Source: Escherichia coli (GTDB lineage: Bacteria > Pseudomonadota > Gammaproteobacteria > Enterobacterales > Enterobacteriaceae). Taken from it: a DNA stretch of 5,921 nucleotides. Below, in pieces: positions 1 to 5,921 of the stretch; position 1 is the stretch's first letter; the number at the start of each line of letters is the position of its first letter. The notes under the pieces are model-generated. The model saw only the letters and a program-made list of their open reading frames with translations, was not told the DNA's origin and did not search any database. The stretch lies in the NCBI RefSeq assembly GCF_003334815.1, contig NZ_QOWO01000069.1. One strand, 5' to 3'. Made by a program: the position numbers and the translations under genes.

Positions 1-315
1 GACCCGCCGCAACGACGAAGAGCGCGTGCGCGAAACGGCGTTGCCCCTCACATCCCGGCGGCCTTTTGCCGGGATGCAGGGAGCGCAGGCCACGGCGCGA
101 CAGAGGCGGCGCGACCGGAACGGTCGCTGCAAGCCAGGGGTTTCGCGTCAGGGATGGAAGCCCGTCAGGGCGGAGACAGCTTCGCTGGCTCCGTTCACGA
201 CAGCCCGCCCCGTCAGGGGGACGCCCGGAAAAGGCATAAGCAGGAGAACAACAAAACAGACAGTAATCAGGACAGCAGTAATCAGAGTCAGAACAGGAGG
301 AAAAAGAGAATAATC
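1..315. repeat. Copy A of a ~290-bp direct repeat; candidate Frpo/ssi-type single-stranded-DNA promoter element (begins at the window edge, so may be truncated)
   Basis: Positions 51..270 are identical base for base to 5682..5901 (220 bp); 1..50 matches 5631..5681 with a few substitutions and one indel. Internal dyad symmetry: 51-59/68-76 (9-bp stem), 111-117/121-127 (7-bp stem), 29-36/140-147, and imperfect long-range pairing 37-51/212-225. Purine-rich 3' tail. Functional call is inference from position in an IncF leading region. Confidence 0.6.
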
Positions 316-464
316 AAAGGGAAGGTGATGTGATTTCTGACAGGTCATAAACAGAGAAGGCGGGGGAAAAGAACGGGCGCCGCAGGCGCACGTTCATCCC
401 CGTTCCCGGAGGGAAACGGCCTTCCTGGCAGTCTGGTTGTTCATGCCCGCACAATGCCAGCAAG

Positions 465-570
465 GGGAAAGGGGCCACCGGCGAACCAGCAGCCCCTTTA
501 TAAAGGCGCTTCAGTGCAGTCAGACCAGCATCAGCCCTGAAAAGGCGGGCCTGCGCCCGCCTCCAGGTTG
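465..570 (-). terminator. hok mRNA 3' region: GC hairpin immediately after the hok stop (544-550/555-561) plus terminator-like hairpin (471-476/491-496) followed by T-run on the minus strand; contains the presumed fbi element
   Basis: Minus-strand sequence closely matches the 3' end of the R1 hok mRNA as I recall it. Stem-loops seen directly in the sequence. Confidence 0.5.
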
Positions 571-732
571 CTACTTACCGCCGGATTCGTAAGCCATTGT
601 TGCCGTAACTTCCCTGTATCCGTCCTTCAGCCGGACTTCGCACAGGCGATTCCGGGTCAGGAGTGTGAATATCAACAACGTGCAGCACACGATTAATACG
701 CACCAGATAAGGGCGTTTCCCGGTAGTTTCAT
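571..732 (-). CDS. hok: Hok-family type I toxin (small membrane-depolarising peptide), 53 aa
   Basis: Hand translation of minus strand from ATG at 732 to TAG at 571-573 gives [53 protein letters not shown], which closely resembles R1 Hok (hydrophobic N-terminus, conserved LCE and MAYESG motifs). RBS AAGGAGGAG about 6 nt upstream. Absent from the ORF track because it is under 60 aa. The symbol flmA/srnB is equally possible depending on the plasmid. Confidence 0.85.
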
Positions 733-790
733 GGTTTACTCCTCCTTGCAATTTGCACGGTAAGAGGCCATACTGACGTGGATGAGACAT
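575..790 (-). CDS. mok: Mok-like overlapping reading frame (translation of hok is coupled to it)
   Basis: 71-aa ORF in a different frame that starts upstream of hok (ATG at 790) and overlaps almost all of hok, ending 4 nt before the hok stop; this is the characteristic mok/hok arrangement. Confidence 0.6.
746..774 (+). promoter_or_regulatory. Candidate sok promoter: -35 TTGCAA (746-751), 17-nt spacer, -10 CATACT (769-774)
   Basis: Plus-strand sigma70-like hexamers opposite the mok translation initiation region, at the position of the sok promoter in R1 hok/sok. The -10 is weak (4 of 6 match). Confidence 0.4.
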
Positions 791-845
791 ACAGTGGGCC
801 TCGTGGGTTAATGAAAATTAACTACGGGGCTTTCTGCTTTCTGCC
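780..845 (+). ncRNA. sok: Sok-like antisense RNA (antitoxin of the hok/sok system); ends approximate
   Basis: Inferred from the hok/mok architecture: an antisense RNA of about 64 nt starting just after the candidate promoter and complementary to the hok mRNA leader / mok start. Coordinates estimated, not measured. Confidence 0.4.
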
Positions 846-900
846 ACACGACAGGATAACAAACCACCTTCACGTCATGAGGCAGAAAGCCTCAAGCGCC

Positions 901-940
901 GGGCACATCATAGCCCATATACCTGCACACTGACCACACT
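901..940 (-). promoter_or_regulatory. Candidate hok/mok promoter; -10 TATGAT at 907-912 on the minus strand, transcript 5' end near 900
   Basis: Minus-strand sequence from 900 downward (GGCGCTTGAGGCTTTCTGCCTCATGACGTGAAGGTGG...) matches the 5' end of the R1 hok mRNA as I recall it. TATGAT lies 6 nt upstream of that 5' end. The -35 is not clear. Confidence 0.45.
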
Positions 941-1146
941 CACTTTCCCTGAAAATAATCAGGTCGTTCAGCCAGTTCCCGGGCAATCAGTTCATCCGCA
1001 AACAGTGGTGCATGCCTGTTGATACGTTTCTCCAGATTCCGCCGTCGTACCGCAGCCTTACGTTCTTCGCTCCAGCGGCGCACCGGGCGGTCAGAAATAA
1101 AATCCAGACAGACCGCATACCCTGCTCCGGCAACCCAGCGTGACAT
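940..1146 (-). CDS. Hypothetical small protein (68 aa from ATG at 1146; the track ORF extends to a GTG at 1287 and would overlap the psiA 3' end)
   Basis: Open frame between psiA and the hok promoter. C-terminal part is charged and helix-like (RRWSEERKAAVRRRNLEKRINRH...). No convincing Shine-Dalgarno before ATG 1146. Start and reality both uncertain. Confidence 0.3.
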   Translation of the reverse strand: MSRWVAGAGYAVCLDFISDRPVRRWSEERKAAVRRRNLEKRINRHAPLFADELIARELAERPDYFQGK

Positions 1147-2455: not shown

Positions 2456-4423
2456 TCAGGCGGCATCGGCCTGGTTGTCACGGTATTCCGTGGTTTCCGT
2501 CTCTGCCTGTGGACGTGGTGTACACATCCAGCCAGGCACCCAGCGGTTGTCTTTCATGTGGAGCTCTGCATGTTCAGCCGCATCGCCTTTCTTCATTTTC
2601 TCCGCGTCCCGCGCAGCACCGGACAGTCCTGCATCATTCAGGGCATCGATAATCTGCGGCTTTTTCAGATGTCCGAAGAAGTTTGCTTTTGTCGGCTGCC
2701 ACCAGTCACGCATGTGGAACCCGATAGCGGTTTCCAGCGAGTCAAGCGGACTGCGTGACGTGTGACCATGCTCGCGAGTCTGGACACCATCCACGGAACA
2801 GGCTGTACAGAAAACCATCAGACTCATCAGAGTCTGTCCGTTAAGCGTGAAGAATGTGGTGAAATCTTTCTGCCAGCCCTCCGGCAACAGAGCCTCCAGA
2901 CGGGCTTTTTCCTGCATCAGACTCAGCCACGCCTGACCTCTCTTTCCACCGGGAGCATCACTTGTCAGCCTTCTGTGATTCTCTTCAATCTGTATCCTGA
3001 ACGGGTGGAGAGTGGTATTGCAGTAATCAAAAACACAACAGCACAATCGCCAGACCATCAGTGCCACTGTTTTTTCAGGTTGATGTATCAGCGCCGCCTG
3101 GACTGCCAGCGTGCGCTCTGAGGACATTTTCGTCAGCAACGGCAGGCTGATTTCCTCCACTGACGCTTTCTCCTGCACCTGTTCCGTGCGGTCAGCGTCG
3201 TCAGCCACGTCATCCTCACTGCGCAACTGCACACCACGCTGGACACACACGTTGCCATAACGCCAGGACACCACCACTCCACCTCCGGCACGCATCTCCG
3301 GCGTCCACGCTCTGACCTTCGCCATGCAGCGCATCAGCTTCATTTCTGCTTCCAGCAGGTCAGATTCCTCACACTGGTTTTCCAGCGCGTCGTAACGCGT
3401 CATCAGTTCGTTCAGGCGTTCTTCTTCCGCCTCCGTCAGCACCGCTTCCGGCTCCGGCAGACAGCGGTATGTTCCGGCATCCTCACGGCACTCACCGACA
3501 GGCTCCATGCGCCCGGCGCACCATTCCCAGCCTTCGGCTTCCCGAAGGTGTTCAGCAACAGCCTGGAGTTTTTCCAGCAGGGCGGCATTGAGCGCCACGC
3601 AGTCCACATAGCCACCTTCGTCGTCGCTGAACAAATCGGTGCGCAGTTCATCTGGCGAGAAGGCATCAGCCCCCACAAAGCGGAATTTACTGTTCCCCGC
3701 CACCGCCACTTCACTTTCGGTCACCAGACGACGAATGGTCTGTACTTCCGGTTTACCGCCCCATCCCGACTGACAGGCGGCTTCAAACACCTGCACCTGA
3801 CGCGCGGTGTCATTCTCCAGCGCCAGCGCCTGACAGTGTTCGGTGGTGATGCGGTCTTCTGCCAGCGCATCGAGGATGACAGGCGCAAGGTCAGCCAGTT
3901 TCAGCATTCGCTGGACATGGCGGGGTGAATAACCCAGCAAGTCACCGATTTGTGCAGGTGTTTTGCCTTCCTGCGCCATTGCGCGGAATCCGGCAATCTG
4001 TTCGGCAGGATGCATATCCCGACGATGACCGTTTTCAGTCATTGATGCGGCAGTCGCCAGCTCCTGCGGAATGACCTTCACACGGACAGGCCAGTCAGCC
4101 GGAAGGATGCCACGCTCTGCCAGCATGTTGAGTGCAGCCAGTCGGCGACCACCTGCGGCGACACCGTAACGCTCACCCGACAGGGCATGAACAACCAGAT
4201 TCTGCAACAGGCCGACGCCCTTAATGGACTCCGCCAGTTCGCTGACGGACTCTGCGGAATACGGCACAGTGCGCACATTCAGCGGTGATTTAATCAGTGA
4301 GGCCAGCGACACGCTCACTTCTTCCGTCTGCGCCAGCAGGGCAGACAGTGCAGTCTCCTGCACTTTTGACGGTTTACGGCTGGATTTACGCCCCGCTTTT
4401 ACCTTAAACTCTGTAACTGACAT
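2456..4423 (-). CDS. ParB/Srx-domain protein of the plasmid leading region (ParB-like nuclease/DNA-binding domain at N-terminus, long uncharacterised C-terminal region), 655 aa
   Basis: 655-aa ORF with ATG at 4423 and RBS AAGGGA. N-terminus carries ParB box motifs (SPLNVR around residues 46-51; GGRRLAAL at residues 91-98, resembling the GERRxRA arginine patch) and a helix-turn-helix-like segment (TPAQIGDLLGYSPRHVQRML). The C-terminal ~400 aa have no motif I recognise. A large ParB-like gene next to ssb is a hallmark of IncF/IncI leading regions. Confidence 0.85.
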   Translation of the reverse strand: MSVTEFKVKAGRKSSRKPSKVQETALSALLAQTEEVSVSLASLIKSPLNVRTVPYSAESVSELAESIKGVGLLQNLVVHALSGERYGVAAGGRRLAALNMLAERGILPADWPVRVKVIPQELATAASMTENGHRRDMHPAEQIAGFRAMAQEGKTPAQIGDLLGYSPRHVQRMLKLADLAPVILDALAEDRITTEHCQALALENDTARQVQVFEAACQSGWGGKPEVQTIRRLVTESEVAVAGNSKFRFVGADAFSPDELRTDLFSDDEGGYVDCVALNAALLEKLQAVAEHLREAEGWEWCAGRMEPVGECREDAGTYRCLPEPEAVLTEAEEERLNELMTRYDALENQCEESDLLEAEMKLMRCMAKVRAWTPEMRAGGGVVVSWRYGNVCVQRGVQLRSEDDVADDADRTEQVQEKASVEEISLPLLTKMSSERTLAVQAALIHQPEKTVALMVWRLCCCVFDYCNTTLHPFRIQIEENHRRLTSDAPGGKRGQAWLSLMQEKARLEALLPEGWQKDFTTFFTLNGQTLMSLMVFCTACSVDGVQTREHGHTSRSPLDSLETAIGFHMRDWWQPTKANFFGHLKKPQIIDALNDAGLSGAARDAEKMKKGDAAEHAELHMKDNRWVPGWMCTPRPQAETETTEYRDNQADAA

Positions 4424-4483: not shown

Positions 4484-4756
<273 letters not shown>

Positions 4757-4774: not shown

Positions 4775-5302
4775 TCAGAACGGAATGTCGTCATCGAAGT
4801 TATACGCGGGTTCAGACGGCTGCTGAGGCTCGGGCTGCGCGGCCTTACGTCCACGGCCTTTCGTTTTCGCGCCTCCTTTTTTCGGTTCCGGCTGTGGTTC
4901 CTGCTGAGGCTGACCGCTGAACTGTTGTGCCTCTTCCGGCTGAGTCTGAGCACCTGCGGCACGTCCCAGCATCTGCATGGTGCCCGTGGTCTTAACAAGA
5001 ATTTCAGTGACGTAACGGGTGATACCGTTATCTTCCCAGCTACGGGTACGGAGTTGCCCCTCGATGTAGACCTGCTCGCCCTTGTGCAGATATTCACCGG
5101 CCACTTCCGCGAGCTTGCCGAACAGCACCACGCGATGCCATTCTGTCTGCTCCCGTATCTCCCCCGTCTGTTTGTCACGCCAGCTTTCTGACGTGGCCAC
5201 CTGCAGGTTTGCCACTGCGCCCCCGTTTGGGATGTAACGGACTTCCGGATCTTTTCCCAGACGACCGACAAGAATGACCTTGTTAATGCCACGAACTGCC
5301 AT
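4775..5302 (-). CDS. ssb: Plasmid-encoded single-stranded DNA-binding protein, 175 aa
   Basis: Translation from ATG at 5302 ([48 protein letters not shown]...[19 protein letters not shown]...) has the SSB OB-fold core, a Gln/Pro-rich linker and the acidic C-terminal tail DDDIPF. Strong RBS AAGGAG 7 nt upstream. The track ORF begins 13 codons upstream (5341), but the RBS-supported ATG is at 5302. Confidence 0.92.
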
Positions 5303-5485
5303 GATGTATCTCCTTCTGTTGATGTTTTCAGCCCCCATCATCTTTTGAGTTTCGGGAGCCGCGGTTTTGACGTTTTGCGGGGACCTGCCTTTTGTTCCCT
5401 ACGGTATTCACCATCACCTTTTTGAGAACCTTCGCCGCAAGGGGCATCACTGCCACGGCCTGACGCACCTGTCCTGGGCAGAACG

Positions 5486-5521
5486 CAAAATTTTTTACCG
5501 GGTTCTGGGTAAAAAATTTTG
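5486..5521. repeat. Perfect 14-bp AT-rich inverted repeat (CAAAATTTTTTACC / GGTAAAAAATTTTG) with 8-nt spacer; candidate operator or structured regulatory site upstream of ssb
   Basis: Arms 5486-5499 and 5508-5521 are exact reverse complements; an extra C-G pair at 5484/5523. No flanking T-run on either strand, so unlikely to be an intrinsic terminator. Confidence 0.6.
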
Positions 5522-5630
5522 TGGGCTGTTCATTTACCCTGGACAGTCAGTGCGGCAGGTTGTGGCTGTATCAGCCCCCGGCGACAGGGGCTTAAACAGG
5601 TGAATGGCACCGGACACAACAACGGGCAGG

Positions 5631-5921
5631 GACCCGCCGCAACGACGTGAAGCGCGGTTTGCGAAACGGCGTTGCGCCTTACATCCCGGCGGCCTTTTGC
5701 CGGGATGCAGGGAGCGCAGGCCACGGCGCGACAGAGGCGGCGCGACCGGAACGGTCGCTGCAAGCCAGGGGTTTCGCGTCAGGGATGGAAGCCCGTCAGG
5801 GCGGAGACAGCTTCGCTGGCTCCGTTCACGACAGCCCGCCCCGTCAGGGGGACGCCCGGAAAAGGCATAAGCAGGAGAACAACAAAACAGACAGTAATCA
5901 GAGCAGCAGAAAAAAGAAGAA
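5631..5921. repeat. Copy B of the ~290-bp direct repeat; candidate Frpo/ssi-type single-stranded-DNA promoter upstream of the ssb operon (runs to the window end, so may be truncated)
   Basis: 5682..5901 is identical to 51..270; flanks diverge. Begins about 330 nt upstream (minus-strand sense) of the ssb start codon. Same internal hairpins as copy A. Confidence 0.6.

Follow-up and report, generated by a model that had tools for sequence, protein, structure and literature searches.

Positions 455..940 of the 5,921-nt stretch of Escherichia coli DNA analyzed here (the window; contig NZ_QOWO01000069.1 of assembly GCF_003334815.1) very probably hold a type I toxin-antitoxin locus of the hok/mok/sok (flm) type, which is intact and belongs to the leading region of an IncF-like plasmid. 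The hok/sok system has been in the textbooks since the 1980s, and the locus described here is an ordinary one that is already known and catalogued; it is under-annotated rather than unknown. Every sequence and structure element of the locus is present, intact, and conserved, including the toxin gene, the overlapping mok frame, both Shine-Dalgarno (SD) sequences, the hok promoter, the tac/fbi/ucb/dcb pairings, the 3′ protective hairpin, a candidate antisense promoter, and a predicted Sok-like hairpin RNA. A preliminary description of the window, made from the sequence, had proposed a complete locus over the same interval, and that proposal stands at the level of all of its sequence-defined elements.

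The two overlapping minus-strand reading frames were compared with curated protein families. The 53-aa frame matched the Pfam family HOK_GEF (PF01848) over its full model (positions 1-42 of 42, E=2.5e-16) and the NCBIfam Hok subfamily NF007279 at 102.4 bits (cut-off 73), and the 71-aa frame matched the NCBIfam equivalog NF010277, "modulator of post-segregation killing protein," at 140.5 bits (cut-off 110, positions 1-71 of 71). The similarity of the peptide to Hok-family toxins, on which the preliminary description had relied, is therefore significant. The window Hok is 73% identical to the R1 protein and keeps all seven of the residues listed as conserved in the family (C16, T18, L30, C31, E32, E41, and E49; bioRxiv 10.1101/2025.08.07.668861). 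The toxin gene had been described as lying entirely inside mok; the two frames do overlap, but the hok stop codon (571-573) is 4 nt past that of mok (575-577), such that hok is almost, and not wholly, contained. The mok SD, GAGG, is the one assigned in PMC9841398, and the hok SD, AGGAGG, is situated 8 nt upstream of the hok AUG, with its AAGGAG invariant in all 11 aligned loci. By analogy with R1, translation of hok is probably coupled to that of mok.

The loci of plasmids R1 (NZ_KY749247) and F (NC_002483) were used as references and aligned to the window. The R1 parB locus, the paradigm type I system, has the same layout and the same leading-region site, downstream of psiA. Identity to the window is complete over the first 43 nt of its mRNA, 96% in its 3′ untranslated region (UTR), 84% in its 5′ UTR, and 74% between the mok and hok start codons. 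The flmA/flmB/flmC locus of F has an identical (100%) 3′ UTR and a nearly identical promoter, whereas its hok coding region is 73% identical; across the two references the 5′ UTR ranges from 84 to 89%, the mok start-to-hok start segment from 66 to 74%, and the hok coding region is 73%. The hexamers of the hok promoter are the same in R1, F, and the window, and the spacer differs by one base from R1 and by two from F. R1 Hok and Mok contain 52 and 70 residues compared with 53 and 71 in the window, and the window leader is 5 nt shorter than that of R1, within the Sok hairpin region. The earlier statement that the leader and 3′ end match the R1 hok mRNA was thus confirmed by alignment, with the promoter, the mRNA 5′ end, and the 3′ UTR being 96 to 100% identical to R1 and F. 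Chance resemblance of short open reading frames and hairpins in noncoding DNA between psiA and the nearby Frpo repeat would have to account for E-values of 1e-16 to 1e-41 against the protein families and 5e-22 against Rfam, together with long base-for-base identity to R1 and F. We rejected this explanation, the probability of which is negligible.

The mRNA was mapped by transferring the R1 numbering to the window. The numbering used in PMC9841398 falls on the correct bases (G4/C5/T6, A70-C72, G105/A106, T117/G118, and G176), which validates the mapping, and the mapped initiation codons agree with those given there for mok (116-118) and hok (174-176). At G4/C5/T6, in the mok SD, at both initiation codons, and in the 3′ stem, where mutations abolish toxicity in R1, the window is wild type throughout. 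Shortly after the mapped mRNA end there is a GC-rich hairpin of 14 perfect base pairs (−23.8 kcal/mol, z = −4.6), which is identical in F and differs by one base in R1; this hairpin could serve as the primary terminator of the hok mRNA. We take the full-length and truncated hok mRNAs to be 398 and 361 nt long, as presumably established in the Gerdes-lab literature. In PMC9841398, which also mentions two full-length forms of the message, C345 and C358 belong to the final stem-loop of the truncated form, consistent with these lengths. The only terminator called by a scan of 400-1000 was at 691-679, inside the hok coding region, and was discarded.

The leader matched the Rfam family RF01794 over its complete model (730..901, minus strand; 98.2 bits, E=5e-22, gathering score 59, positions 1-157 of 157). 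The consensus of this family, named "sok antitoxin," runs from the 5′ end of the hok mRNA to the hok AUG and matches the sense strand of that mRNA. What the match identifies is therefore the hok-mRNA leader, in which the sequence complementary to Sok is contained, and it gives no direct evidence for a transcript of the opposite, plus strand; for the same reason, strand calls made with RF01794 are opposite to the real Sok RNA.

Unconstrained minimum free energy (MFE) folds of the two mRNA forms gave both of the conformations published for R1 (PMC9841398), reproducing its tac/fbi/ucb/dcb logic. In the full-length fold (900 to 503), nt 1-7 and 9-10 (tac) pair with nt 390-396 and 387-388 (fbi), and nt 71-77 (ucb) pair with nt 97-103 in the mok SD region. 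In the truncated fold (900 to 542), nt 1-7 (tac) pair instead with nt 69-75 (ucb), and nt 99-113 on the mok SD side pair with nt 123-137 on the dcb side. The first 35 nt, corresponding to the nascent transcript, form a hairpin of −13.7 kcal/mol (z = −2.6) that is identical in sequence to that of R1; the isolated Sok-target hairpin has −15.9 kcal/mol (z = −3.5), and the GC-rich 3′ hairpin, whose stem is identical to that of R1, has −19.8 kcal/mol (z = −4.1).

Conservation of these pairings was assessed in a structural alignment of 11 distinct plasmid loci from E. coli, Klebsiella, Enterobacter, and Shigella on IncF, IncI2, and IncU backbones; one Klebsiella pneumoniae locus (CP044394) and one locus truncated by IS150 were left out as they lack a homologous 5′ leader. 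Paired cells amounted to 100% for tac/fbi and for ucb/SD, 97% for tac/ucb, 86.7% for the SD/dcb target hairpin (with one compensatory pair), and 99% for the 3′ hairpin (with four compensatory pairs). Overall, 92 to 95% of cells were paired compared with 36 to 54% in controls whose partners had been slid by one to three columns. The truncated-form structure contained six compensatory pairs, and none of 500 shuffles reached its observed score.

An antisense promoter candidate on the plus strand, already noted in the preliminary description, occupies the same alignment columns as TTGCGC-17-TATCCT in R1 and F; the window hexamers are TTGCAA and CATACT. The CATACT −10 element is common to five of the nine aligned loci (the window included), and its A2, T3, C5, and T6 are invariant. 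The −35 element overlaps the hok SD and the −10 element abuts dcb, in agreement with the location of a Sok promoter mutation within dcb (PMC9841398). With its start set 6 to 7 nt after the −10 element and its end set by homology, the predicted Sok RNA has a 12-nt single-stranded 5′ tail (GGAUGAGACAUA), a long hairpin, and a U-rich tail. It folds with −23.7 kcal/mol (z = −4.8), and the R1 and F counterparts, folded likewise, share this architecture. The preliminary description anticipated an RNA of ~64 nt at 780..845; the position was close, but by homology the RNA is predicted to be ~59 to 60 nt at ~780..838 rather than the 64 nt of R1 Sok, its hairpin having 5 nt fewer, and the FlmB hairpin RNA of F has the same length of 59 nt. 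Expression of Sok from the window is probable by homology to the R1 and F loci.

No element of the locus varies more between alleles than the 5′ tail of Sok (5 to 10 of 12 positions shared); the window differs from R1 at 2 of 12 positions, whereas FlmB of F matches at 5 of 12. The target loop, CUCAUCC, opens with the YUNR-type motif CUCA, compared with CUAG in the CUAGUCC loop of R1; from the work of Franch and colleagues in 1999, YUNR-type motifs are said to act as U-turn recognition elements. The alleles are also mosaic. A locus on the Shigella sonnei IncI2 plasmid pEG430-1 (301-694) joins a window-type hok coding region (97%) to a leader and Sok region of the R1 type (69% identical to the window between the mok and hok start codons), and in the window a 3′ UTR identical to that of F follows a coding region that is not of the F type. 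Because the tail and target loop vary most and the toxin and antitoxin modules are mosaic, the window allele may form a separate specificity group whose hok mRNA is not neutralized by R1 or F Sok.

On the basis of homology to R1 parB, the locus would operate as follows. A weak sigma-70 promoter would produce a stable ~398-nt hok mRNA, the tac of which would be held in the metastable 5′ hairpin while the transcript is nascent. In the complete mRNA, the 5′ end would pair with fbi at the 3′ end and ucb would sequester the mok SD, preventing both translation and Sok binding. Slow 3′ exonucleolytic trimming back to the GC-rich hairpin would remove fbi, whereupon tac would pair with ucb and the mok SD would shift into the SD/dcb target hairpin. 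As long as a cell keeps the plasmid, the abundant but unstable ~59-nt Sok would bind the truncated mRNA by its 5′ tail, block translation of mok and hence the coupled translation of hok, and trigger cleavage by RNase III. In plasmid-free cells Sok would decay first, the mok and hok frames would be translated, and the 53-aa Hok would depolarize the inner membrane and kill the cell. Slow 3′ processing, RNase III cleavage, toxicity, and post-segregational killing are established for R1 (PMC9841398 and references therein). By analogy with R1 and F, the window locus would likewise transcribe both RNAs, undergo the same processing and cleavage, encode a toxic product, and stabilize its plasmid by post-segregational killing.

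Several observations weigh against the assignment of an intact and active locus. In a consensus scan of 400-1000 with a threshold of 9 of 12 matches, the Sok promoter was not called, having 8 of 12 (the R1 promoter has 7 of 12). The R1 Sok target is given as nt 65-131 in PMC3562002, a few nucleotides off the present mapping; that numbering would start Sok 1 nt after the −10 hexamer, and we treated the discrepancy as a numbering offset. The exact RNA ends are extrapolated by homology and so are approximate. Equal toxicity of the window and R1 Hok proteins is assumed, with the hok coding region only 73% identical in both DNA and protein. For the full-length structure, 176 of 500 shuffles reached the observed score. 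Covariation is thus modest overall, weak for the full-length form, and good only for the truncated form, because most paired positions are invariant.

The sub-consensus Sok promoter and the 27% divergence from R1 Hok could also indicate a decayed or silenced relic, similar to several chromosomal hok loci, in which Hok is nontoxic or untranslatable or Sok is not made; nothing else in the data points that way. Both reading frames are intact, as are the seven conserved Hok residues, all of the pairings, and both SDs, and the window locus contains no insertion sequence, unlike the CP044394 and IS150-truncated loci, in which the 5′ leader has been replaced. The allele is moreover widely conserved. 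The 486-nt region matched at least 5000 plasmid records in PLSDB, and among the matches listed ~770 were at ≥90% identity and ~700 at ≥95%, with R1/F-type alleles at ~85%. A live hok with a dead Sok promoter would be lethal and could not persist. We rejected decay, which is very improbable, and retain the reading of an intact hok/mok/sok locus.

The positions of all features are collected in Table 1.

Table 1. Features of the hok/mok/sok locus and neighboring genes in the window.
Feature	Positions	Strand	Basis or remark
hok toxin gene, 53 aa	571..732 (stop included)	minus	open reading frame list, Pfam, NCBIfam
mok frame, 71 aa	575..790 (stop included)	minus	open reading frame list, NCBIfam NF010277
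mok SD, GAGG	799..802	minus	aligns with R1 G105-G108
hok SD, AGGAGG	741..746	minus	read from sequence
hok/mok mRNA promoter, TGGTCA (936-931) - 18 nt - TATGAT (912-907)	907..936	minus	consensus scan, 9/12
Full-length hok mRNA	503..900	minus	homology to R1 nt 1-398; +1 = G900
mok AUG	790-788	minus	R1 numbering mapped
hok AUG	732-730	minus	R1 numbering mapped
Truncated mRNA 3′ end	~542	minus	R1 numbering mapped
Full-length mRNA 3′ end	503	minus	R1 numbering mapped
tac (translational activator), mRNA nt 1-10	891..900	minus	MFE pairing
Metastable 5′ hairpin of nascent transcript, sequesters tac	872..899	minus	fold of first 35 nt
ucb (anti-SD of mok), mRNA nt 69-77	824..832	minus	MFE pairing
fbi (fold-back inhibition), mRNA nt 387-396	505..514	minus	pairs with tac in full-length MFE fold
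Sok-target hairpin of truncated mRNA, mok SD with dcb (764-769), 7-nt loop	764..803	minus	truncated MFE fold
GC-rich 3′ hairpin and U tract, predicted to end and protect translatable truncated mRNA	542..563	minus	fold
14-bp hairpin, possible terminator	468..499	minus	fold
Sok promoter candidate, TTGCAA (746-751) - 17 nt - CATACT (769-774)	746..774	plus	aligns with R1/F
Sok antisense RNA, predicted ~59 nt	~780..838 (ends ± a few nt)	plus	homology, fold
Conserved open reading frame, 104 aa	943-1254	minus	between psiA and hok promoter
psiA	1251-1970	minus	
psiB	1967-2404	minus	
ParB-like gene, 655 aa	2456-4423	minus	
DUF905 gene	4484-4744	minus	
ssb	4775-5341	minus	

The window represents the leading region of an IncF-like conjugative plasmid. 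Its gene order, ssb-DUF905-parB-like-psiB-psiA-hok, matches the synteny of F and R1, and the hok locus is located directly downstream of psiB-psiA, on the strand shared with the leading genes and between two Frpo-type repeats. This is the position of flm in F (Frpo2-ssb-...-psiB-psiA-flm-Frpo1) and agrees with the earlier placement of the locus adjacent to the establishment genes. The entire window is 90 to 97% identical to thousands of Escherichia, Klebsiella, Salmonella, and Shigella plasmids and is colinear with the F and R1 leading regions except for 991-1245, which matches neither; the 104-aa open reading frame between psiA and the hok promoter is absent from F and R1. PADLOC returned no match for Hok or for the neighboring open reading frame. 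Among complete E. coli genomes, 3195 of 5426 contain a match to the 486-nt region, at 4332 plasmid and 49 chromosomal places. Occurrence of hok/sok in leading regions has been described before (PMC11541004; PMC9849209; bioRxiv 10.1101/2025.08.07.668861).

Nearly the whole window is bracketed by a direct repeat of 257 nt (30-286 and 5661-5917, plus 1-26 and 5631-5656), the copies of which are 97% identical and 5631 bp apart. They are 90 to 95% homologous to two F regions, one downstream of flm and the other upstream of ssb, which are the single-stranded-DNA promoters Frpo1 and Frpo2 (Couturier et al. 2023, PMC9849209); in a blastn comparison with F, window 2-991 aligned to the flm-Frpo1 segment and window 5324-5912 to the Frpo regions. 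An AT-rich inverted repeat (5479-5528; 21-nt arms, 86% complementary, 8 nt apart) is found between the Frpo2-like repeat and ssb. Homology with F suggests that the window plus strand is the transferred T-strand, and this strand of the repeat, folded as single-stranded DNA, is more stable than its shuffles (z = −3.1).

This setting bears on the role of the locus. A true hok/sok could serve mainly for something other than killing after loss of the whole plasmid: it could guard the leading segment against deletion between the Frpo repeats, assist conjugative entry, establishment, or anti-defense, or exclude phage. The 97%-identical repeat that bounds the window is homologous to the F Frpo1/Frpo2 regions, and protection of the segment between Frpo repeats has been proposed (PMC9849209); likewise, Samuel et al. 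(PMC11541004) found toxin-antitoxin genes to be over-represented and T-strand-encoded in leading regions and suggested a protective role in establishment. These roles are, however, proposals of the cited papers, they share the killing mechanism and are compatible with the ordinary post-segregational killing shown for the R1 and F loci, and the sequence has nothing that discriminates between them. We regard a different main role as possible and hold it tentatively.

A more specific variant concerns the moment of entry. All of the leading genes, hok included, use the window plus strand as template, and the upstream copy of the repeat (5661-5917) is by homology an Frpo2-type single-stranded-DNA promoter. 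Sense hok RNA might therefore be made by read-through on single-stranded DNA before Sok, which would come late because its transcription needs synthesis of the complementary strand; the slow hok mRNA would then act as a timer that kills recipients that destroy the incoming plasmid or fail to convert it to double-stranded DNA. A second, milder idea is the separate Sok specificity group suggested above for this allele. We consider these ideas unlikely; if true, the timer would mean addiction from entry onward, penalizing host defense.

For the intact hok/mok/sok locus itself, the value of the result is mainly one of correct annotation. The name "type I toxin-antitoxin system Hok family toxin" is attached to the exact Hok peptide (UniProt Q2VNZ0) on 997 contigs, and 104 contigs carry the exact Mok peptide (Q2VNZ1, modulator of Hok), either as "modulator of Hok protein" or as "stable plasmid inheritance protein." In near-identical RefSeq plasmids, PGAP often reports hok as a fragment of 40 aa that begins at an internal GTG (Val12; window 571-693, minus strand; 6248-6370 at one such plasmid locus), as is the case for E. 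coli O27:H7 B4103-1 plasmid unnamed3 (NZ_CP024248), which is 99.8% identical over the 486 nt. Many shortened "Hok/Gef family protein" entries of 29 to 46 aa exist, Mok is labeled "DUF5431 family protein" in the near-identical plasmids, and Sok carries no annotation in them. The locus thus flags a recurrent shortcoming of automated pipelines, in which hok is often cut to 40 aa, Mok is called DUF5431, and Sok is omitted. Its correct annotation confirms an F-like leading region with a complete addiction module, and knowledge of the locus is useful for plasmid typing and for predicting the persistence of plasmids, such as those that carry resistance or virulence genes.

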